DNA of 64,000 nucleotides, taken from IMG/VR virus record IMGVR_UViG_3300021959_010405, positions 1 through 64,000 of that record; one strand, given 5' to 3'. Below the pieces are notes generated by a model. The model was not told where the DNA came from and searched no databases. It saw nothing but the letters and a program-made list of their open reading frames with translations. The position numbers were made by a program, and so were the translations under genes. Of this stretch, positions 22,406 to 55,004 are shown in pieces. This DNA is from a virus. Numbering within the stretch: position 1 is the first letter of the stretch; each line of letters starts with the position of its first letter.

Positions 22406-24289
22406 ATGGCTATTGAAATTGACAGTAATACAATTATTAAACTAATCGTTCGTAATGGTAGCGATGAAGAACGACAAGGTATAGTTCTCGCAGAAGGTGA
22501 ACTTGGATATACTGTAGATACAAAAAGATTGTTTGTCGGGGATGGCGTAACCCCTGGAGGTGTAAGCGTATCAAATAGGTTCCTCGGATCTACTACAAAT
22601 ATACTCGACCCTTCATTATCTCCTAATATTAATGATATTGTTTTTAAGTCTGATACTAACGAACTATTTAGATTACAGTCTGCAGGTGGTACATCCCTTT
22701 CAGACTGGCAGCTACTATCTGGACCAACCTTAAATGTTGTAGATAACGCAACACTTTCAGCGAATTCTACAACAGGCGAATTATTTGTAAACCTCATAAG
22801 TGGGACTAATTTAGATGATAGCATATTCTCAAGCAATATAGTAAGAAGCGGTAATAGTATTGCATTAGCAGAAGACCTTGCAGTGAATTTAGTAAGAACA
22901 GATGCTATAACAGCAAATGCTGCAGCATTTTTAAATATTACAAATAATATAGAATTTTCTGACGGAACCAATACAGAACAATATGTATTTCCAGTAAATC
23001 AACCATATGGCGATAATTACCATCTTGTTACAGATACAAGCGGTAACTTATCATGGGCTGCAGCAGACCGTGTAGTTGAAGGCACAACATATATCAACAC
23101 AGCAGCTATACCAGTTGGAACAATTACACCTTACATCTCTTTAAACCCTCAGGCATCTGCAACAACAATCGCAGGATGGTTATTCTGCGACGGATCAATT
23201 CTTGCTGGCTCTGAATATCCGGAACTTTCAGCGGCATTGGGAAATACATTTGGAGGCGATGGTATTACTACCTTCCACTTACCTGATCTAAATAGATCAA
23301 CAACATATGGCATAGATCCTACAACCGAATCAATAGGTAATACTTTTTTGCCAACAACTAGTTCAACCCATCTTTCACCGTCGCTATCAGCCTTCAATGT
23401 ATATTACATAATAAAATATAGACCAGATACTGCATTCGAAGATAACGTTCTTGAATTAAATGTGCAGACCCTTACATCTCAAGGAGTATCTGGATATGAT
23501 ATAACTAGCGGGCAATCAGTTAGTAGTGTGGGACCGAGTGGGCAGTTTTCTATTAGTATACCTACCGGGGATATAGGAACTGGTAACGAGCGAGTTGTAG
23601 AGTCTGTGCAACGTGCAAGAGTGCCCTCAATGACAGCATGGGACTCGCCCGGTACTTATGAATATATAGTGCCTAGCAATGTATACAGAATCAAAGTAAC
23701 CGCAACCGGGGCGGGTGGTGTAGGATATGTAAGATGGACAGTAGGCGGTCAAACTATTTGGAAAAGCGATGGTACAAATGGCGGTGCTGGCGGTAGTGTA
23801 GTTGCATATATAAACGTTGAGCCTGGGCAAACATATCAAGCTGTAATAGGTAATAAAGGGGTGTCGAGCAATAATACCAGAACCGGAGCCACATTAGGTG
23901 TAGGTGAGAATACTACTTTCGGGCTAAGCACCGGTGGTACAGTTTATGACGATATTATAGCGCAAGGAGCATACGATGGAGGTAATCAACGCTCGCTTGC
24001 CATCAACAGAGTTTATCCTAGCTATGCTAGAGGTGGATATAAAGGTGGTGGGTATACTGTCAATAACAGCTCCGGAACGATTTCTTCATATACAGGAATC
24101 AATGGTGGAGAAGGTGGAAACTATTTCGGATTTGAAGGCGGGTTCTCGGTAGGTGCATCAAGTATGTGGGGATCGGGACCTGCTCCAGGTGGTGGAGGAT
24201 CCGGTAATAGTAATTATGGCCATAAAGGTGGTGCTCCTAGAACAAGTGCTGCAGCTGGTGATGGATTTATAATGGTTGAAGAATTATAA
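22406..24289 (+). CDS. Tail fibre protein: Mtd-N-like head, tail collar domain, glycine-rich tip
   Basis: GELGYTVDTKRLFVGDG; IPVGTI...GWLFCDG...YPEL...TFHLPDL (collar); TGAGG/GGAGG-rich C-terminus. Confidence 0.82.
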   Translation: MAIEIDSNTIIKLIVRNGSDEERQGIVLAEGELGYTVDTKRLFVGDGVTPGGVSVSNRFLGSTTNILDPSLSPNINDIVFKSDTNELFRLQSAGGTSLSDWQLLSGPTLNVVDNATLSANSTTGELFVNLISGTNLDDSIFSSNIVRSGNSIALAEDLAVNLVRTDAITANAAAFLNITNNIEFSDGTNTEQYVFPVNQPYGDNYHLVTDTSGNLSWAAADRVVEGTTYINTAAIPVGTITPYISLNPQASATTIAGWLFCDGSILAGSEYPELSAALGNTFGGDGITTFHLPDLNRSTTYGIDPTTESIGNTFLPTTSSTHLSPSLSAFNVYYIIKYRPDTAFEDNVLELNVQTLTSQGVSGYDITSGQSVSSVGPSGQFSISIPTGDIGTGNERVVESVQRARVPSMTAWDSPGTYEYIVPSNVYRIKVTATGAGGVGYVRWTVGGQTIWKSDGTNGGAGGSVVAYINVEPGQTYQAVIGNKGVSSNNTRTGATLGVGENTTFGLSTGGTVYDDIIAQGAYDGGNQRSLAINRVYPSYARGGYKGGGYTVNNSSGTISSYTGINGGEGGNYFGFEGGFSVGASSMWGSGPAPGGGGSGNSNYGHKGGAPRTSAAAGDGFIMVEEL

Positions 24290-24308
24290 TTTAATTATAA
24301 ATACAATT

Positions 24309-24491
24309 ATGGGCGATGAAACCATCTACGAGTTAAATTTGACAGATCTACTTATTTTAATTGAATTAATTAATAAGACATTAGAGAGAGGGGCCATAGA
24401 CCCGGGAATGATGGAAGCTGTTGGTTCTATATATAATAAAGTATCACGAATTATTGAGGATATGACACTACCTAAAGATAAATGTAGTTAA
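24309..24491 (+). CDS. Small late protein (possible fibre chaperone)
   Basis: TATAAATA-CAATT-ATG(24309) places the start; 60-aa helical ORF. Confidence 0.55.
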   Translation: MGDETIYELNLTDLLILIELINKTLERGAIDPGMMEAVGSIYNKVSRIIEDMTLPKDKCS

Positions 24492-45983: not shown

Positions 45984-46676
45984 TTAAGACCACTTTTCTA
46001 AAAACCACTTTTTACCAGCTTCCCACTCATTATCCGGATTAGTTAATCCTGGTGATTTATGAACAATAGGAATATCCCATACTCCTATTTTCTTTTTATT
46101 TTTATTACATTCAAGCGAAAAATCTAAATCATAATAATGAAATCTAGATGGATTATCCTCACTAAATCTGCATGACTCTAACACGCTAGGTGTAGTTGCA
46201 ATAAATACCCCATCAATAAGTAACACTCTTTCGTTTAGAGGGCCGAATGAGGTGTACATATAGGGCATTATATTATTAGAATCGGGAGATAAGCAGTGAG
46301 CTACACAACCTCTCCTCGATTCTGGAGGACCCATTAAGTGCCAAAGACCATATTCTATATTTGATACAGTAGTTGTACCTGCTACACCTACAACATCAAA
46401 CTGCTCAAATGCCTTATCTAATTTTCGATCTATGTTACCACAATTTATATATACATCATCATGTACAAATACTATAGCTGTATTATCGTCGTAATATCCC
46501 AAGCTCTCATCAATAAATTTATTATATTGAGCTGATAGTGATTTATCATTTGTATCAAACCTATAAATGTCATAATTCAAATTAGGGCATTCCTTCGATA
46601 TACTTGTCTCTAGTAACGTTTTTTTACTAGATTTGTTTTTAGTACAGATTACGAAAGATATATTTGTGATACTCAT
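45984..46676 (-). CDS. GT-A glycosyltransferase-like protein
   Basis: IVFVHDDV, VVGVAG, LIDGVFIA, FHYYDLDFSL. Confidence 0.8.
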   Translation of the reverse strand: MSITNISFVICTKNKSSKKTLLETSISKECPNLNYDIYRFDTNDKSLSAQYNKFIDESLGYYDDNTAIVFVHDDVYINCGNIDRKLDKAFEQFDVVGVAGTTTVSNIEYGLWHLMGPPESRRGCVAHCLSPDSNNIMPYMYTSFGPLNERVLLIDGVFIATTPSVLESCRFSEDNPSRFHYYDLDFSLECNKNKKKIGVWDIPIVHKSPGLTNPDNEWEAGKKWFLEKWS

Positions 46677-47371
46677 ATAAAGAAAGGGCTTTTATTTTTA
46701 AATTGTCCGACTAACACGGGACCTTTTGATGTTAACTCAAAAATCTTACCCTCTTTCAATTCTTCCCATTGGTTTTTACTATTAATAGAAGAAAAGTTCC
46801 CTCTATCGTCAGCAAACAATGTAGATCCCTGCCTCGCTATATAAACTTTTTTAGAATCGGTGTTGTATACCCAAACTGAAAATGTACCCTCAAGCTTAGC
46901 TAAAGCCTTTTCAATAGCAGTTACATGATTTACCTTTATTTTAGTAGATGATATGCTATTTGCCATGATAGGTATAAGTTTTGAATCAACTGATACTTTT
47001 ATACCATTGTTATATTCCTTAATTAAAGATTCCTGATTAGTAATCACTCCATTATGAGCAATTATCCATTCACCGATATGAAAAGGGTGTGTAGTCTCTT
47101 CACTCCATTTTCTATTAGACCCTGTAGGTGCTTGTAAATGACCTAAATATATATCAAACTTATCCGGTTCTAGTATTTTACTAATTTTATCTTGTTTACC
47201 TTCCCACCTCTTAACTTGGTATAGTTTTTTAATATTTTTTTTCTTGTTTGGAGAATAATTGAGTACATCATATATACCCATATAACTACCTCCCCACGCT
47301 CCTCTAATTTGATTCACGTCGTGAAGAACTTCAAACATTGATTTGTTAAAAGAACCAAATATCGCACACAT
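46673..47371 (-). CDS. Stand-alone class II (Ntn) glutamine amidotransferase
   Basis: N-terminal M-C-A-I-F-G, HPF, AHNGVI, DS, LEGTF; TATAAATA 5 nt upstream. Confidence 0.85.
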   Translation of the reverse strand: MCAIFGSFNKSMFEVLHDVNQIRGAWGGSYMGIYDVLNYSPNKKKNIKKLYQVKRWEGKQDKISKILEPDKFDIYLGHLQAPTGSNRKWSEETTHPFHIGEWIIAHNGVITNQESLIKEYNNGIKVSVDSKLIPIMANSISSTKIKVNHVTAIEKALAKLEGTFSVWVYNTDSKKVYIARQGSTLFADDRGNFSSINSKNQWEELKEGKIFELTSKGPVLVGQFKNKSPFFI

Positions 47372-47466: not shown

Positions 47467-48942
47467 ATGAAGCCATGGCAAAATGATATTTTCAGCTTAT
47501 ATGTCGAACAAAGAGGTCGAGCAGGTCGCAATGTAGGTAAATACCACCCTAAATTAAAAGGAACTAGACAGGACGTTAGATCTGCAGGTCTTTCAGTTCC
47601 AAGTAGAGATGCTCCTAATTTTATTGCGACATTATTATATAATTTAGACATATTTGATGATGCAGAAGCTGACTCTATTATACGCGCGACATCATCTCCA
47701 GCACGGGGAGAGTCCTTAATGCAATCATTGGAGGCTCATTCCGACGAGATTATTAAACGTCAAGATGATATTTCTAATGCATACGAAGAGGAGTTAACAA
47801 AGTATGTAAATAGAGCTAAAATCAATAGAGGTCGTGGGGGTAAAGGTAGTAAAGGTCGTACAGAGAGATACGAAGCTCAGGCAGCTGCTATTGAAATAGC
47901 AAAGCAACAAAAAGAACTATTGAAGCAAATGAAGTCTCAAGGTGTTGATGCTGCTACGTCTATAGAGGATGCTATTTTAAATAGTATGGAGAGTACAAAA
48001 GACGAGACTCTAGTCTCTATGCAAATAAGAGGTCTTACAGATGCGGATGGTTTAATTGATACAATCGAAAAGTTAGGTGTTGATAAATCTGATATTGGCG
48101 TTGAAAGGGTTTCGGGGGGAGTTGTTGTAGATTTCTTTATATCGACAAATTCTCGTATAGGTAGGGATTTCGAAAGTATTCCTCCTACAGAAATTGATGA
48201 TATGTTTAGTAGATTTAGTTCCTCCGGTGAGGTTGTTGTGGAGGTTCTGCCTCCTGATGATATTGCTGATGCCATATCTGGTTTAAAATCAAGTTTATCT
48301 CAACCAGATAGAAAATCGAAAGGCGAAACTTACGACGAGCCAGAAAAGGAAGATAGCGAGGTAGAGTTTGACCCTAAAACATCGGGGGAAGTACCAACTG
48401 TTACGTCAGTAGATGATGATGAAGACTTTAGACCTACAGAAGATGATTTTGATGAGGTAGGTGTTGCATATGACCCGTCGTTTAGTCGTGAGGATGATTA
48501 CGACGTAGACTCGGAGGATATGAACTATGATCCAATGAACCCATATGATGAGGATCGGTTCGAAGATGAAGAGGGTGAGCGCGAATGCGAAGAATGCGAC
48601 GGAGAGGGAGGTAAAGAATATCCATATCAAGGAGAAATGGAATGGGAAACATGTAGATCTTGCAAAGGATCTGGTAAAACTAATCAACCATCACGCTACG
48701 GTGAAGATCGATATGAAAACGAAGAGGCAAAGCCAGATTATATTGATATCGATGGGGATGGTGACAAAGAGGAGCCGATGAAAAAGGCTGCTAAGGAGAG
48801 AGAAGAAGAAAACAATGAAGAAAATATCAATGAAGGGCACAAAATGTCACCCCAGCAAGCAAACCAATGGATGACTCAACAGCGAAACGAGAGAATGCGC
48901 AGTTATATGAAGCATGACGAGCGCTGGAAAGGATATTATTAA
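47467..48942 (+). CDS. Acidic late protein (probable internal head protein)
   Basis: TAAATA-TTTCT-ATG; D/E-rich C-half with two CxxCxGxG motifs and DIDGDGDKEE. Confidence 0.65.
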   Translation: MKPWQNDIFSLYVEQRGRAGRNVGKYHPKLKGTRQDVRSAGLSVPSRDAPNFIATLLYNLDIFDDAEADSIIRATSSPARGESLMQSLEAHSDEIIKRQDDISNAYEEELTKYVNRAKINRGRGGKGSKGRTERYEAQAAAIEIAKQQKELLKQMKSQGVDAATSIEDAILNSMESTKDETLVSMQIRGLTDADGLIDTIEKLGVDKSDIGVERVSGGVVVDFFISTNSRIGRDFESIPPTEIDDMFSRFSSSGEVVVEVLPPDDIADAISGLKSSLSQPDRKSKGETYDEPEKEDSEVEFDPKTSGEVPTVTSVDDDEDFRPTEDDFDEVGVAYDPSFSREDDYDVDSEDMNYDPMNPYDEDRFEDEEGERECEECDGEGGKEYPYQGEMEWETCRSCKGSGKTNQPSRYGEDRYENEEAKPDYIDIDGDGDKEEPMKKAAKEREEENNEENINEGHKMSPQQANQWMTQQRNERMRSYMKHDERWKGYY

Positions 48943-48957
48943 TTTAAAAAAAAGATT

Positions 48958-50322
48958 ATGACTAATGATACAGATCTAATTTTTGAAAGATATTGCAATA
49001 TACAAGAAGGTATTTTTCAGCGAGGGAGAGCCAAACTAAACGCATTCGGTGAAACTGATGAAAGTCTTCAGAATTTAATTAACCAATATACAAAAAAAAT
49101 AGGTAAACATGTAGGAGATTTAGAAGCTGATTTAAAAACATTTAAAGGAAGTCTTCAGCCAATAACTCAAGAAAAAATGGCGATTTTACTTAATAATTTA
49201 AATAGCGCAGGAGTCGAAAGTGCTCAATCCGCACTAGGTAAAATAGGTCATATGTTAGGTAGATTCGTCGGCGCTGCAGCTCCTGCAGCTGCAGTCACTG
49301 CATTAGCTGCTGGTACTGGTGGTTTAGGTGGAATAGCTACTGGAGCACTCGCAGGCGCAACTCGAGGGCTTCAACGTAATTTAACTAGGACTGATATCGA
49401 TACTAAAAATAAATTTGGAAATGTTGCAAAAACTACCGCTGCCGGCGCTGCGATTGGAGGTGTAAGTGACTTTGTTGCAAGCAAGTTAGCTAATGCACCT
49501 GATGCAGGATTTGAACCAGCAGGGCCACCTAGCGAGTTAGCTAATGCACCTAGCGAGTTAGCTAATGCACCTGATGCAGGATTGGACCTAGCAGGTGCAC
49601 CTAGCGAGTTAGCTAATGCACCTGATGCAGGATTGGACCTAGCAGGTGCACCTAGCGAGTTAGCTAATGCACCTCTACAGGATACCATTGGTGCAATGCC
49701 GGAGTTACCTCCTATGAATCCCGACCTTTTCCAAAATTTGCACAATTCTTCGTATGATCCAAATAGTATAGTAGATCAGGCTAAGATGTTGTTGCAACAA
49801 CAGGCGGAGCAGCAAGGAATAACTGATCCAAACGAAATTGCTAATTTCGTTTATAGAAATGGTGGTATTGAAACTCTAGATAGTGTAGGGGCTGAGGAAA
49901 TTATTAATAACTTTAATTCTACAGTGGACCAAATTGCAAGTCAAGCTATTGAACCGGGAATCACGTTTTCGGAATTACCAACAGATCTTAAGTCTAGCGC
50001 GGAAGGTCTCTATAATCAAATGATAGAAAAGGGTTATTCAGCTGAAGATGCATCAAATGAATTGAGTGGCATTAATGATATATTCGCCGGCACTAAGAGG
50101 GTATCAGGAGATGACGCTGCCGTGGAAGTGGTTAAAGATTATGTAAAAGGAGTCGCTGAGGATATAGCCAGCCCAGGAACTTCTAATAACACTCTTAATG
50201 TACTTCAAAACGCGGCGAGGCGCGGCAGGCTGACTGATGAAATGAAACAACTTTTTCTTAATAAAGCTATAGAAAGAGGAGCTACTGACGGAGAGTTACA
50301 GGCTATTATGAATTTAAATTAA
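48958..50322 (+). CDS. Gly/Ala-rich protein with tandem repeats (probable head/ejection protein)
   Basis: MTNDTDLIFERY..IQE-G leader; hydrophobic GA-zipper; SELANAP repeats. Confidence 0.65.
   Translation: MTNDTDLIFERYCNIQEGIFQRGRAKLNAFGETDESLQNLINQYTKKIGKHVGDLEADLKTFKGSLQPITQEKMAILLNNLNSAGVESAQSALGKIGHMLGRFVGAAAPAAAVTALAAGTGGLGGIATGALAGATRGLQRNLTRTDIDTKNKFGNVAKTTAAGAAIGGVSDFVASKLANAPDAGFEPAGPPSELANAPSELANAPDAGLDLAGAPSELANAPDAGLDLAGAPSELANAPLQDTIGAMPELPPMNPDLFQNLHNSSYDPNSIVDQAKMLLQQQAEQQGITDPNEIANFVYRNGGIETLDSVGAEEIINNFNSTVDQIASQAIEPGITFSELPTDLKSSAEGLYNQMIEKGYSAEDASNELSGINDIFAGTKRVSGDDAAVEVVKDYVKGVAEDIASPGTSNNTLNVLQNAARRGRLTDEMKQLFLNKAIERGATDGELQAIMNLN
49480..49674 (+). repeat. 51-bp/21-bp coding tandem repeat
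   Basis: agcgagttagctaatgcacct occurs 5 times (first copy has one mismatch), 3 of them extended by a 30-bp block. Confidence 0.92.
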
Positions 50323-50338
50323 CCCCATTAATACATTA

Positions 50339-50893
50339 ATGAAAAAATATGACACAGATATTATTTTAGAGAAGCAATTATCACAAATTGATGAAGGTCT
50401 TCTAGATCGCATAAAAGCTAAAGCTTCTGGAGCTAAAGCTTTCCTCACAACTGACATGGGTAAAGGATTAGGTGGTATGAGTCAAAACTATCAAGAGACT
50501 GCCCAATCAAAGCTTATTGATAATAAGATTGAAAAAATACATAAAATTATATTAGATTTAGAAACAGATCTAATGAAAACTGCAGGAATGAGTACTGAGA
50601 CTTTAAAAAATCAATACCCTCAGATTTATCAGCAGTTACAGTTTTTAAGAAATTCAGTATCTCTTAACCCGCAACAACAGCAAGCCCCGCAACAACAGCA
50701 AGACCCGCAACAACAGCAAGACCCACAGCAACGCTCATTTAACCCCGGAGATGTAATTAAATACACTAGTACAAGAAACCCTCAAGGGGAGCAGGCTGAA
50801 GTTGTAGAGGTTTTGCAAAACGGAAATATACAGGTTAAGCCAGTAGGCAAATCTAATCCTGTTTTTGCTATATCCCCAAATCAAATTCTATAA
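50339..50893 (+). CDS. Probable head protein with PQQQQ repeats and SH3-like tail
   Basis: QIDE-GLLDRIKAKASG; C-terminal FNPGDVIKY...AEVVEVLQNG. Confidence 0.65.
   Translation: MKKYDTDIILEKQLSQIDEGLLDRIKAKASGAKAFLTTDMGKGLGGMSQNYQETAQSKLIDNKIEKIHKIILDLETDLMKTAGMSTETLKNQYPQIYQQLQFLRNSVSLNPQQQQAPQQQQDPQQQQDPQQRSFNPGDVIKYTSTRNPQGEQAEVVEVLQNGNIQVKPVGKSNPVFAISPNQIL
50669..50731 (+). repeat. 18-bp coding tandem repeat (PQQQQA/D)
   Basis: ccgcaacaacagcaag(c/a)c, 3.5 copies. Confidence 0.88.
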
Positions 50894-50960
50894 AAAAACA
50901 CCTAAAGACCTAAATAATATTATGAATAAAGACTCAGAATTAATCTTTGAAAATTATAAA
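50892..50960 (+). repeat. Promoter+leader cassette copy C
   Basis: aaaaaaacacctaaagaccTAAATAatattATGaataaagactcagaattaatctttgaaaattataaa. Confidence 0.85.
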
Positions 50961-51644
50961 TCTATAAATGTAAAACAGTTAATGCTCGAATCATCTTTTG
51001 ATACATTTGAGCGAAACGCGCCTAACGTAAATACTCTAGAAGAGGCGTATGCAATTTTAGATATATATGAGATGTTAGAGGAAGCTGGGTTTTTTGGAGC
51101 TGTAAAAAATGTAGCTCGAGGGGCTGGTAATACCTTAAAGGCAGGAGCTACTAAATTAAAAGCCGGAGCTCAACAAGTCGGTGACGTGGTAAAATCGGGA
51201 GCTCAACAAGCTGGTAGTGCCTTAAAGGCAGGAGGTGCTGGATTGGCAGCTGGAGCTCAACAAGTTGGTTCAAATGTAGCCGATATGGCCCGGACTGGAG
51301 CTGCCGTCTCGCAAGGTCAACAAGTAATTAAACAAGCCGCTACAGCTGCACAACAAATTATTGATCTCGTAAACAAAGCAAAGCAAATCTCTCCAGAAAC
51401 ATTCACAGGCTCGCAAGGTCGTGAGCTCGCTCAAAATATATCAAATCTTCCGCTTATAAAAATAATGGATTATTTAGATGAACTAGCTGCAAATACCACC
51501 GCTGCAGCTACGGCCGCTAGTGATAAAGGAATATTTGGAGGGGCCGGCGCTGCTGCAAAGCAGGCCGCTTCTAATGAATATCAACAATCTCAGCAAGCAG
51601 CACAACCAGCAGCACAACCAGCTGCAGCTGCTCAACCAGCTTAA
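50922..51644 (+). CDS. Ala/Gln-rich probable head protein
   Basis: Start placed at ATG 50922 by the late promoter; MNKDSELIFENYK leader; KAGAQQVG repeats. Confidence 0.68.
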   Translation: MNKDSELIFENYKSINVKQLMLESSFDTFERNAPNVNTLEEAYAILDIYEMLEEAGFFGAVKNVARGAGNTLKAGATKLKAGAQQVGDVVKSGAQQAGSALKAGGAGLAAGAQQVGSNVADMARTGAAVSQGQQVIKQAATAAQQIIDLVNKAKQISPETFTGSQGRELAQNISNLPLIKIMDYLDELAANTTAAATAASDKGIFGGAGAAAKQAASNEYQQSQQAAQPAAQPAAAAQPA

Positions 51645-51649
51645 TAAAT

Positions 51650-52411
51650 CTACAATAGGTTCTTAAAGGCGTAGACTTCGTATGGTATGAGGTCTACGCC
51701 TTTTTCTTTGTATACATCAATTAATCGCTTTTGATCCTTATATAAGCAAGGATCTGCATAACCAGCCTCTAGAAATCCTTGTAATCTTAGAGATGAGCTT
51801 GCAGTTGTGGACTCAGGTAATTTACCACCTTCGTAGCATGTCCAGGTTTCACTAAACATTACCTTGTTATTAATACCTTCTTGAACGATCTGAGCTTTAG
51901 ATAGATCTATAAGCGGCGCCTCTATCCTTATGGGATTATCTCTATTAAGATTTAATATATTATTAATAGAATCTAAAAATTCAGGCGAGCCATCCCAGTA
52001 TCCAGCAAGAGAATCTGCTTGAGCTGCACCATGCCATACTGTATCTGCTCCTACAGCTTCAGCGTGAGCAGCACATATACTCAAAAACATCATATTTCTG
52101 TTAGGTACATATGTTTTAGGCTGAGCTTCACCCATAATATCTCTAACGTTAGGGGTTTCTATACTATTGTTTGTTAGAGAGCTAGTAGGTGCGAGTTCTC
52201 TAAGAAAGTTAACATCTAATACCTTGTGATGAATATTTTTATTCTTTTTAAGGGCGTGTTTAATTTGCATATGAGCAAATTCTATCTCTTTTTTATGTCT
52301 CTGACCGTAATCAAACGTCAAACAATGAATAGAATCAAATTCATTGACTGCTTTATGTAGGAGAACAGAAGAATCCATGCCTCCAGATATTGGTAATACT
52401 AATTTATTCAT
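51650..52411 (-). CDS. queC: QueC-family PP-loop ATPase lacking the zinc-binding Cys cluster
   Basis: ISGGMDS, FDYGQRH, YVPNRN, APL, TWTCYEG. Confidence 0.85.
   Translation of the reverse strand: MNKLVLPISGGMDSSVLLHKAVNEFDSIHCLTFDYGQRHKKEIEFAHMQIKHALKKNKNIHHKVLDVNFLRELAPTSSLTNNSIETPNVRDIMGEAQPKTYVPNRNMMFLSICAAHAEAVGADTVWHGAAQADSLAGYWDGSPEFLDSINNILNLNRDNPIRIEAPLIDLSKAQIVQEGINNKVMFSETWTCYEGGKLPESTTASSSLRLQGFLEAGYADPCLYKDQKRLIDVYKEKGVDLIPYEVYAFKNLL
51665..51709 (+). terminator. Probable intrinsic terminator of the + strand island, inside the queC 3' end
   Basis: AAAGGCGTAGAC...GTCTACGCCTTT (12-bp perfect stem) followed by TTCTTT. Confidence 0.65.
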
Positions 52412-52421
52412 ATTGTGTTAA

Positions 52422-52610
52422 TTACCCAATTTTATATTCGTAATCTTGGAAATTGAAGCGTACGTATTTATTAGTGTAATAAATCTCTCGGTGTTTGACT
52501 CTATCGCAATGTGTCGTCCACTCACTTTCACCGATTTTTCTACCGGATATAGTTTTACCGTCTTTCGCTGCTTGTATAATCGCGATTTGTTCATCGTATG
52601 TATATTTCAT
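52422..52610 (-). CDS. Small conserved-type phage protein
   Basis: IQAAKDGKTI...W...FNFQDYEYKI pattern common in phage hypotheticals. Confidence 0.55.
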   Translation of the reverse strand: MKYTYDEQIAIIQAAKDGKTISGRKIGESEWTTHCDRVKHREIYYTNKYVRFNFQDYEYKIG

Positions 52611-52615
52611 TCGTT

Positions 52616-53374
52616 CTATGGTAATTTAGGGTCTAGACTCCAAGCTTCAACTACATGTTGTTTAACATAATCCCACGACATTTTAAAGGTACCATTATCG
52701 CCCCATAGATTTGACCAGGAATTTACCAATGTAATACCGCTTTCGTCAACTTCATCAACATAAACCCAATGGTAGCCCACTACAGGGTCGCTAGGGCCTG
52801 GCATTAAAAGCTCTCCAGTATTTTTAGTATGTATCTCGAAGGATTTATGAACTGCCATGGTTATTCCTACTGGTAGTTTTTCCTCTCCAATACAATAAAA
52901 GAAGTCATTTACAATGTTATCAAAATTTTTTTTATTGAAGTCAAATCTTTTATACCCTTTAAATTTAATAAGCTTGTCCTCACCTATTTCAGGTGGAGAT
53001 TCATTAAAGTTTTCAGGCTTCCATTCTACATCTTCGCATGTACCGATTTTAACTAAATTTTTAAAGACATCACGGGGATATGCTCCACTATTTTGTGTCT
53101 CCCAACCATTAGCTTTCCTCGCCCAATACCAAATCCAATATGGACTAAAATCTATACTATCAGTGGTAAGACGCTTATATAAGGTATGAAGCATTCCTGC
53201 CGTACCATGACCAGTACACGATCCCCATGTCCCTTGATCTAAAATTTTACCTCTATATTCTTTGAGAGAAGCTTTTTTCTTACTTGTACTACCCGCCTTA
53301 TATAAAATATCTCTACTATCTGGTAGAGATGGTAATACATATGAATATTTGTTTCTAAGTTTTGATAATTTCAT
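52616..53374 (-). CDS. Papain-like (C1A) cysteine protease
   Basis: DQGTWGSCTGH (Q/C), GYHWV (H), NSWS..WGDNG (N). Confidence 0.88.
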   Translation of the reverse strand: MKLSKLRNKYSYVLPSLPDSRDILYKAGSTSKKKASLKEYRGKILDQGTWGSCTGHGTAGMLHTLYKRLTTDSIDFSPYWIWYWARKANGWETQNSGAYPRDVFKNLVKIGTCEDVEWKPENFNESPPEIGEDKLIKFKGYKRFDFNKKNFDNIVNDFFYCIGEEKLPVGITMAVHKSFEIHTKNTGELLMPGPSDPVVGYHWVYVDEVDESGITLVNSWSNLWGDNGTFKMSWDYVKQHVVEAWSLDPKLP

Positions 53375-53691
53375 ACACCTTCAAATGATAAATTTAAAAA
53401 TAAATCAATAGACTTAACAACAATTGTACGATCTTTACCTGCTGCCCATTTGTTGATAGCACTATATTTAATTTTATTAATGTTACCTTTCAAGTAATCT
53501 TCCCTATAGCTTGTAATTAAATCCTTATCACGTGTAATATATACGAGTTCAGTTAAATATTTAGCCTTAATAAAACTCTCACTGGATGCAGGGGGTTCTA
53601 CATCATGAGAACGATTTACAATTGCACAGCTTGTAACTAATACAAAAGGCAGTATAAATATCAATAGTTTTTTACTAAAATTCGTTAGCAT
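53371..53691 (-). CDS. Putative lipoprotein
   Basis: MLTNFSKKLLIFILPFVLVTSC: basic N-region, hydrophobic core, lipobox-like Cys. Confidence 0.6.
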   Translation of the reverse strand: MLTNFSKKLLIFILPFVLVTSCAIVNRSHDVEPPASSESFIKAKYLTELVYITRDKDLITSYREDYLKGNINKIKYSAINKWAAGKDRTIVVKSIDLFLNLSFEGV

Positions 53692-53884
53692 ATAATTCCT
53701 TCTCATCATTTTCTTGATCTTTATCATCTATTAAAATTATTATCTCTTGATTTTTTTTAATTGTTTTAATTAATTTTTTAAATAATTTCTCTTGGGTTTT
53801 ATTTAATAAAGTTATACCACCATTCGAAACGGCTTCCATCGTCTCAATTAAGTCGTCCTGCAAAAAATATTTTTTAAGCTTCAT
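53675..53884 (-). CDS. Hypothetical protein
   Basis: 69-aa ORF overlapping both neighbours. Confidence 0.5.
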   Translation of the reverse strand: MKLKKYFLQDDLIETMEAVSNGGITLLNKTQEKLFKKLIKTIKKNQEIIILIDDKDQENDEKELYANEF

Positions 53885-55004
53885 CCTTTACAACATCTCC
53901 GGTTTCGCTCTCTACAATCTCTTCAGGAACCTCTTCTTCTCCCTCCTCTAGATTACTGTACATCCATTCTGATTTAATTCTTTCTTCTAGTCTAGGTATA
54001 ATAGTCTCTTCCCAGAGATCAACATCCTTTCGAAAGTTTTTATAATATCCGATTTTTTTACCATCCTCTAACTGGTAAGTAGATCCAGTCTGTATCAAAA
54101 CACCTAAACCTACAGCAATATCTAATAGACCATAAAATCTGTCTAGACCTTTTGAGAAGGATAGGTACATCTCTCCTTCGAGATATTGCTTTAAAAAACG
54201 ATTTTTTCTTGTAAGAGCTCTAATAATAATACCAGAATATTTTTTCTGACTTACAGCAAGTTTACCATCACTGATCTTACCACCATCCTCCTTCATAGGT
54301 TTGCGAGCTAGCTGGACTGTTACAGATGGCAGATATACAACCGATTTGCCTCCAGGCATATTTTTCTCAATTGATGGAAACATTGCAGATGGGTCATCGT
54401 ATACATGGTTAGTAAGCAATACAGTTGTTTGTGTTGTAGCACCTAAATTAGTACATGTTTGAAGTAATGATTTAATTGCTCTAGCTTTAGTACCCATATC
54501 GACTGCGGTACTCTCTTTATTCATTCGATTTAACTCAAGCTCGGATTGAAGATTCCCTAATGAATCTACTGCGATAATAAACTTACCTTCAAGCCCCTTT
54601 TCTTTAATAGCTTCGAATAATTTATAAATAGCATTTCTTGTTTGTTCAATACTAGAACATGGTACATATTTTACATTTGAAATATCTAGACCAATCCTCT
54701 CAGCGGATTCCGGGTCGATCGCGTTCTCAGTATCAAATACGACTGGTATAAGACCTTCCTTTTGTGCATTAGCAAGAATCTTCATAACAAATAATGACTT
54801 ACCAGTCATCGACTCACCCGCTAACATAGTCACTCGACCTTTGGGAATGCCTCCATTTACAGAACCAGAAATTATTGAATTTAATACATATGATCCTGTA
54901 TCGATCCAGCCCTTTACCAGACTAAGGGAAGAGTTATCCAAGTAAGATGCGAAAGGGTTAATTTCGTCAATCTCATCTAATGCGCTTTTTATATCTTTAT
55001 CCAT
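53874..55004 (-). CDS. uvsX: RecA-like recombinase
   Basis: IDTGSYVLN, AGESMTGKS, FDTE, AVDSLG, DMG..A, TNHVY, PGG. Confidence 0.93.
   Translation of the reverse strand: MDKDIKSALDEIDEINPFASYLDNSSLSLVKGWIDTGSYVLNSIISGSVNGGIPKGRVTMLAGESMTGKSLFVMKILANAQKEGLIPVVFDTENAIDPESAERIGLDISNVKYVPCSSIEQTRNAIYKLFEAIKEKGLEGKFIIAVDSLGNLQSELELNRMNKESTAVDMGTKARAIKSLLQTCTNLGATTQTTVLLTNHVYDDPSAMFPSIEKNMPGGKSVVYLPSVTVQLARKPMKEDGGKISDGKLAVSQKKYSGIIIRALTRKNRFLKQYLEGEMYLSFSKGLDRFYGLLDIAVGLGVLIQTGSTYQLEDGKKIGYYKNFRKDVDLWEETIIPRLEERIKSEWMYSNLEEGEEEVPEEIVESETGDVVKDEA

Follow-up and report, generated by a model that had tools for sequence, protein, structure and literature searches.

QueC enzymes are described by two hallmarks, a PP-loop and a zinc site made of four cysteines, and the zinc is stated to be required. 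The locus studied here raises the question of what such an enzyme does once most of its zinc ligands have gone. It belongs to IMG/VR record IMGVR_UViG_3300021959_010405 (117,429 bp, approximately 55% complete according to CheckV), from which we analysed a stretch of 64,000 nt, referred to below as the window. Genes for UvsX, a family B polymerase and a DnaB-type helicase mark the source as a T4-like myovirus. Its kinship to cultured phages is distant, with UvsX approximately 31% identical to cyanophage UvsX. A first-pass annotation of positions 51650-51860, a span that corresponds to the C-terminal third of the protein and includes the zinc region, had proposed a zinc-independent QueC variant, possibly with a new substrate or a new chemistry.

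The gene at 51650..52411 (minus strand) encodes a clear QueC homologue, a protein of 253 aa to which no glutamine amidotransferase (Gat) is fused. We assigned it by Pfam and TIGRFAM profiles as well as by an AF2 model. The match to PF06508 (QueC) has an E-value of 2e-53 and 181 bits against a cut-off of 22, and it covers positions 3-209 of 210. The TIGR00364 equivalog score of 173 bits also lies above its cut-off (150.3), and the enterobacterial model NF008317 gives 143 only, versus 378. The solved QueC structures 2PG3 and 3BL5 were both matched by sequence, the former with 36-38% identity.

The published signature of canonical QueC consists of SGGxDS, YxQxHxxE, VPxRN, YPDC and C(x)8CxxCxxC, and mutagenesis of the E. 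coli enzyme has identified Y35, R99, Y131 and Y189 as essential (Libby et al. 2026, PMC13329287). We compared the phage protein with the canonical QueCs of E. coli (b0444), B. subtilis (3BL5) and Pectobacterium (2PG3), which form Cluster 1 of PF06508 in the same study. The PP-loop, an ATP pyrophosphatase motif, reads SGGMDS (aa 9-14; 52370..52387), YxQxHxxE is present as YGQRHKKE (52286..52309) and VPxRN as VPNRN (52094..52108), all on the minus strand. The Tyr of YPDC, the first Cys and the Tyr of TCY, K165 and R206 are shared with the canonical enzymes too. The items that fail are the zinc motif and the Pro and Cys of YPDC: in comparison with canonical QueC, the second to fourth cysteines have become E/D, T/S and S, and YPDC has become YWDG. 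The phage protein also differs in carrying approximately 25 additional C-terminal residues and in having a stand-alone glutaminase encoded nearby. Because the zinc motif of the published signature is missing, we classify the protein as a putative zinc-free variant of the QueC family, outside the canonical signature.

The former zinc-knuckle region (aa 189-213, TWTCYEGGKLPESTTASSSLRLQGF; 51773..51847, minus strand) was delimited by alignment to E. coli QueC and to related viral proteins that retain all four cysteines (CCCC sisters). Only the first cysteine is left, C192, which corresponds to C188 of E. coli. C197 is replaced by E200, C200 by T203 and C203 by S206, which gives the pattern C-x7-E-x2-T-x2-S where the canonical one is C(x)8CxxCxxC. 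The alignment with the sister viral QueCs is gapless across the knuckle and the spacing is equal. The first-pass reading, according to which three zinc cysteines are replaced with the spacing and the PP-loop kept, is therefore borne out by the alignment. Y193, adjacent to C192 and equivalent to the essential Y189 of E. coli, is kept as well, here and in all 148 members of the clade described below.

A search of 5.8 billion clustered proteins showed the same Cys-less pattern in each of its 120 best matches, which are 52-86% identical; many of these lie on contigs of 100-230 kb, and some derive from Tara surface samples. After IMG/VR loci had been added, the set comprised 148 distinct Cys-less sequences and approximately 37-38 sisters that keep CGxCxxC. 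At the four ligand positions, the 148 sequences carry Cys (148/148), Asp, Ser or Glu (135, 11 and 2, respectively), Ser or Thr (75 and 73) and Ser (148/148). Invariant across the clade, in E. coli numbering, are the P-loop, Y35, Q37, H39, E42, V96, R99, N100, Y131, D133, K165, Y189 and R206.

With the zinc columns removed from the alignment, the Cys-less set remained monophyletic and required one change (FastTree SH-like 87; IQ-TREE SH-aLRT 99). Alignment and phylogeny thus resolve one Cys-less viral clade nested among CCCC sisters of 47-50% identity, which indicates a single loss followed by wide diversification within the marine clade. Pairwise dN/dS within the clade is 0.02-0.14 (40 pairs). 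Since the pattern is shared by a clade of 148 sequences, evolves under such constraint and leaves the essential residues invariant, it is a product neither of chance or sequencing error nor of gene decay. The conserved polar replacements, maintained by strong purifying selection in a large clade, uphold the zinc-independent variant that had been proposed at first.

Among cellular QueCs, 79 of the 80 best GTDB matches have all four cysteines, and we therefore rejected the idea that the Cys-less form arose or occurs in cellular organisms. The sole exception among these 80 comes from a MAG contig of 1,984 bp, which probably represents a piece of phage DNA binned with the genome.

The first-pass annotation had further pointed to GYWDG in place of GYPDC. 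This string is indeed present (aa 137-141; 51989..52003, minus strand), outside the span to which the annotation was attached, and it retains the essential Tyr as well as the Asp. A Gly at the position of the YPDC Cys also occurs in 34 of the 38 zinc-bearing viral sisters, all but one of which have Trp in place of the Pro. YWDC or YWDT stands at this place in the most similar cellular QueCs, which share 40-45% identity and belong to Chloroflexota, Hydrogenedentota and other groups. Because zinc-bearing sisters share the Gly and cellular relatives share the Trp, GYWDG is a separate and older trait, uncoupled from the loss of zinc ligands.

The AF2 model, built on an alignment of 80 sequences, reached a pLDDT of 92.2, with values of 88-91 across the former knuckle; confidence was lowest in the loop that directly precedes YWDG (mean of 62 for residues 131-140). 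Its best PDB matches were Cap9 (Z 20.3), B. subtilis QueC 3bl5 (Z 19.9) and 2pg3 (Z 19.6), so that the fold is that of canonical QueC at Z of approximately 20. The model aligns to 3bl5 and 2pg3 through the former knuckle, with superposed ranges that run through residues ~219-243. A helix predicted at 204-215 begins in the A-S-S-S segment, directly after T203. Residues commonly found as helix caps include Ser, Thr and Asp. The position of this helix, taken together with the nature of the replacing residues, fits a substitution of the zinc ligands that would be structural and not catalytic. AF2 models no metals, and a confidently predicted loop is no proof of stability without zinc.

The upstream neighbour of queC is the gene for the UvsX recombinase (53874..55004, minus strand; RecA Pfam match and PHROG 97). 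On the other side lies Gat (46673..47371, minus strand; GATase_6/7), a stand-alone class II glutamine amidotransferase of the Ntn type with a Met-Cys start. Its end is overlapped by a small GT-A glycosyltransferase gene (GT; 45984..46676, minus strand; Glyco_tranf_2_5, E 9e-15). The gene order UvsX-QueC-Gat-GT is conserved in both the Cys-less and the zinc-bearing clade, recurring at 76 of 80 related loci. Gat is located 0-2.4 kb downstream of QueC in 76 of the 80, compared with 4.3 kb in the present phage. GT adjoins Gat in 66 of the 80 and is missing in one Cys-less subclade (L020-L035), where Gat adjoins QueC and a GT homologue was not detected within the flanks.

In the window, QueC is separated from the Gat-GT pair by a 4.2-kb block on the plus strand (47467-51644). 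The block has four ORFs (491, 454, 184 and 259 aa) with low-complexity repeats of Ala, Pro and Gln. These ORFs matched no Pfam family significantly; one sub-threshold match to DnaJ_CXXCXGXG was seen in the 491-aa ORF. Between QueC and UvsX, the minus strand of 52422-53727 encodes a papain-like protein of 252 aa (Peptidase_C1, weak) and two small ORFs. This segment looks like a recent insertion, since homologues of its ORFs occur in just 1 of the 80 related loci.

The remainder of the 117-kb record holds most of a 7-deazaguanine pathway. FolE and QueD are encoded outside the window. Positions 113810-116720 of the record (G000; L006 9810-12720; minus strand) carry genes for a DpdA3-like transglycosylase, a DpdN-like formyltransferase, an AAA_28 kinase and a bimodular QueF. 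DpdA3 was located with the phiST CGPG_00065 protein as a query. PF01702 (TGT) and PF20314 (DUF6610/DpdA4) found nothing in the record or in four relatives, but PF01702 also misses the DpdA3 of phage CP220, so that its negative result carries no information. The DpdA3-DpdN-kinase-QueF block has the same order as that of Flavobacterium phage immuto_2-6A and shares 38-45% identity with it. The QueF of the record has both the ESKSIKLYF motif and the Cys/Asp site NCxVTSQPDWG. To our knowledge, the nitrile preQ0 is the only substrate known for QueF.

QueF was present in all relative records with at least 90% completeness, in both clades. The complete relative G001 (184.5 kb) has a single QueC, which is Cys-less, together with FolE, QueD, QueE, Gat, GT, DpdA3, the kinase and QueF; another relative, G005, also has QueE, QueD and FolE. 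Sister phages have the same pathway (FolE, QueD, QueE, Gat, QueF and DpdA3) whether their QueC is zinc-free or zinc-bearing. In the 117-kb record, itself approximately 55% complete, searches with PF04055, TIGR03365 and tblastn using the QueE proteins of relatives and of immuto_2-6A revealed no QueE. It is absent from the slot between PhoH and the AAA_28 kinase (G000 81484-83033; L004 17484-19033), where G004 and G005 carry it, and it may either lie in the part of the genome that the record lacks or have been lost. With the exception of QueE, all genes of the immuto_2-6A fdPreQ1 system are present in this approximately 55% complete record.

Two further features of these genomes were observed. 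The present phage and immuto_2-6A have the formyltransferase between DpdA3 and the kinase, but the corresponding slot of G001 (23888-24439; L091) gave no tblastn match to DpdN; it may encode another tailoring enzyme or none, which would imply a different final base. The QueD of the record (G000 80854-81483; L004 16854-17483) reads CxxxHGY instead of CxxxHGH, after FRQW(K/R)A. Because the QueDs of G001, G005, phiST and immuto_2-6A share this variant, it is a lineage trait of the DpdA3 phages in question.

A close comparison is offered by the CCCC sisters, which are encoded by uncultured T4-like phages (e.g., L046, L073 and L081). They are 47-50% identical to the present protein and share its synteny, YWDG and a QueF in the genome, and their knuckle is of equal length and spacing. 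CGxCxxC is the sole systematic difference that we found. Canonical QueC, in turn, likewise co-occurs with FolE, QueD and QueE.

Zinc cysteines have also been lost in other phages. The QueC of immuto_2-6A lacks all four (TNTSY...SASSVER), and its genome has the same DpdA3-DpdN-kinase-QueF module as well as FolE and QueD (PMC10516641). It differs from the present protein in a 28% identity, a 9-residue loop insert and an intact YPDC. Gat was not seen in the 3.7-kb stretch around its QueC, which falls outside the marine clade (SH-aLRT 99). In this phage, fdPreQ1 is the sole 7-deazaguanine of the DNA, at 345,000 per 10^6 nucleotides, and the replacement of G was described as complete (Cui et al. 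2023, PMC10516641).

The same state was observed in a broad group of siphovirus QueCs. No Cys occupies any of the four ligand positions in the five siphovirus QueCs inspected, i.e., those of Sphingomonas phage MMDA13, Pseudomonas phage Iggy, Dinoroseobacter phage R26L, Rhizobium phage RHEph05 and Pseudanabaena phage Pan1. The MMDA13 protein has matches in 63 phage records at E <= 1e-30, with the ligand state read in the five inspected phages. Iggy and its relatives (MMDA13, Nanhaivirus, Kleczkowskavirus) resemble the present phage in having a zinc-free QueC, in their case within a queE-queC-queD-folE-dpdA cluster. They differ in having lost all four cysteines (SHTSYDG.YPP...LLRAQGF), in keeping YPDC, in their DpdA1-type clusters, in the lack of QueF and in an identity of approximately 35%. 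The queC gene of Iggy (L196 4001-5062) encodes a C-terminal tail of approximately 140 aa. Iggy DNA contains dPreQ0 at ~16.5% of G, and the long C-terminal tail was the only feature of its QueC that the authors remarked on (PMC10484667).

The siphovirus and immuto_2-6A proteins share 28-35% identity with the present QueC and lie outside the marine clade on the tree. A single origin of all Cys-less forms is disfavoured by an AU test (p = 0.035), a result that is suggestive only, given the long branches involved. All four cysteines are kept in the QueCs of CAjan, CP220 (QueC*), KVP40-like vibriophages and Bacillus phage BSTP12. The CAjan enzyme, which is genetically validated, was considered as a validated Cys-less case and rejected, being canonical CCCC. 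Two or three losses of the zinc site seem to have occurred in the sample examined, all of them in phages. Full-text searches in a library of limited extent, which are no proof of absence, returned no paper noting zinc-free phage QueCs, nor does the present protein fit any of the non-canonical clusters that Libby et al. (PMC13329287) describe within PF06508.

Taken together, the observations of sequence, conservation, selection, phylogeny, gene content and synteny make it likely that the protein, apart from lacking a metal, is an ordinary preQ0 synthase, which would feed a DNA modification of the preQ1/formyl-preQ1 type. The Cys4 zinc knuckle would be replaced by a polar loop, presumably without metal. 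QueC would adenylate CDG (7-carboxy-7-deazaguanine) and convert it via the amide ADG to preQ0, with ammonia probably released from glutamine by the neighbouring stand-alone Gat. The preQ0 would then be reduced by the phage's own QueF and formylated by the DpdN-like enzyme, and a DpdA3-type transglycosylase would insert the base into DNA, as in immuto_2-6A. The most economical interpretation gives the Cys-less enzyme the same task as its zinc-bearing sisters, the synthesis of preQ0. Since its module matches the fdPreQ1 module of immuto_2-6A in gene order, this uncultured marine phage is predicted to carry formyl-preQ1-type DNA.

The new substrate or chemistry suggested at first found no support, because the essential residues are invariant, the pathway is unchanged between the clades, QueF needs preQ0, and YWDG is uncoupled from the loss of zinc ligands. 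The first-pass annotation had itself held that its proposal would be refuted if the protein made preQ0 normally and Cys-less variants were common among validated QueCs. The dPreQ0 of Iggy and the fdPreQ1 of immuto_2-6A largely point this way, circumstantially; the hosts of these two phages may supply preQ0 themselves.

As to why the ligands were lost, zinc economy, attractive for oligotrophic seawater where zinc is scarce, or resistance to oxidation in sunlit surface seawater, since Cys4 sites are sensitive to oxidants, would be compatible with a metal-free preQ0 synthase. Members of the clade come from marine metagenomes, including the Tara surface samples, the loss recurs in aquatic phage lineages, and Cys-minus paralogues of ribosomal proteins provide an analogy. 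We nevertheless regard this cause as doubtful. The FolE of the same phage is of the zinc type and keeps a Cys-x-His-His motif and later Cys residues, which we take to be its zinc ligands, as in E. coli FolE; genome-wide zinc sparing is thus unsupported. Moreover, phages from wastewater, soil and rhizobia, such as Iggy and RHEph05, have Cys-less QueCs as well.

A second possibility, which we judge unlikely, is that the product or the substrate has changed: the enzyme might stop at ADG, make the archaeosine base in the manner of a split Gat-QueC, or use CDG in nucleoside or nucleotide form. The gene pair does recall Gat-QueC, the dG+/G+ synthase of phage 9g and Crenarchaeota, which likewise combines a class II glutaminase with a QueC module and in phage 9g yields dG+ (PMC6884629). 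Indeed, PHROG 10428, a fused Gat-QueC of 476 aa, is matched by Gat in its N-terminal half (1-188) and by QueC in its C-terminal half (260-458). Kinases adjoin DpdA3 and QueD, and the essential Y189 is situated in the zinc region beside the substrate pocket (PMC13329287). However, Gat, GT and QueF are found equally beside the CCCC sisters, so the gene content was not altered when zinc was lost, and QueF requires preQ0, not ADG or G+. The pocket residues tested by mutagenesis are all unchanged. In contrast to Gat-QueC, which is fused, the present phage has two genes 4.3 kb apart and a QueF. We therefore rejected an identity with the G+ synthase, and the separate genes together with QueF point to products of the preQ1 type rather than the G+ type.

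The QueC* of Campylobacter phage CP220, a proposed ADG synthase, is also a phage QueC homologue from a DpdA3 phage. It keeps four cysteines and FPDC, lies on a distant long branch and comes from a phage without QueF. An explanation of the CP220 type was rejected for the present protein on the grounds of that CCCC/FPDC sequence and distant branch and of the QueF in our record. We also rejected a QatC/Cap9 defence enzyme, as the surrounding genes serve phage replication and structure. PADLOC returned a weak 59-bit match to 'QueC' and no QatC, and canonical motifs that QatC lacks are present in the phage protein. By structure, the protein is about as similar to Cap9 (Z 20.3) as to QueC.

We think it quite unlikely that the loss of zinc marks a mechanistic change, with the loop serving as a docking surface or ammonia channel for the glutaminase, or with the pocket opened for ribosylated or phosphorylated CDG. 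If it did, the metabolism of these phages would involve a so far undescribed deazapurine intermediate and, in the pocket variant, 7-deazaguanine would be built at the nucleotide level.

It seems equally improbable that the enzyme still depends on a metal, with C192, Asp/Glu200 and the Ser/Thr hydroxyls binding Mg, Ca, Mn or Fe, or with a partner such as Gat completing the site. The residues of the knuckle would suit such a site: in E. coli numbering, none of the 148 sequences lacks C188, 137 of them have D/E at position 197, and S/T invariably occupies positions 200 and 203. Position 197 is nevertheless Ser in 11 members of the clade, and the two other phage lineages have lost all four ligands, the first Cys included, without the acidic replacement pattern. 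Moreover, where the predicted helix 204-215 starts, Ser, Thr and Asp are what would be expected of helix caps.

An inactive relic or pseudo-enzyme, brought to mind by the lost hallmark motif and by the QueE not found in the partial (117-kb) record, is scarcely credible given the dN/dS of 0.02-0.14, the catalytic residues invariant in 148 sequences and the fact that the complete genome G001, which has the rest of the pathway, encodes no other QueC.

A metal-free preQ0 synthase thus remains our preferred reading, and the confident QueC fold of the model (pLDDT 92.2, Z ~20), a check that the first-pass annotation had called for, agrees with it. For a QueC specialist, the loss of zinc is somewhat surprising, while new chemistry is not indicated. 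On sequence grounds, the hallmark zinc site appears to be dispensable in QueC: a large viral clade and apparently two more phage lineages do without the zinc ligands and keep every residue shown to be catalytic. This raises the testable question of whether the zinc site is merely a structural clasp, and the matched pairs of enzymes that nature provides, approximately 50% identical and with or without the site, are suited to probing its role. In annotating the 7-deazaguanine pathways of phages, the cysteine motif is unsafe as a filter. Finally, an uncultured group of marine T4-like phages joins those predicted to carry formyl-preQ1-type DNA.
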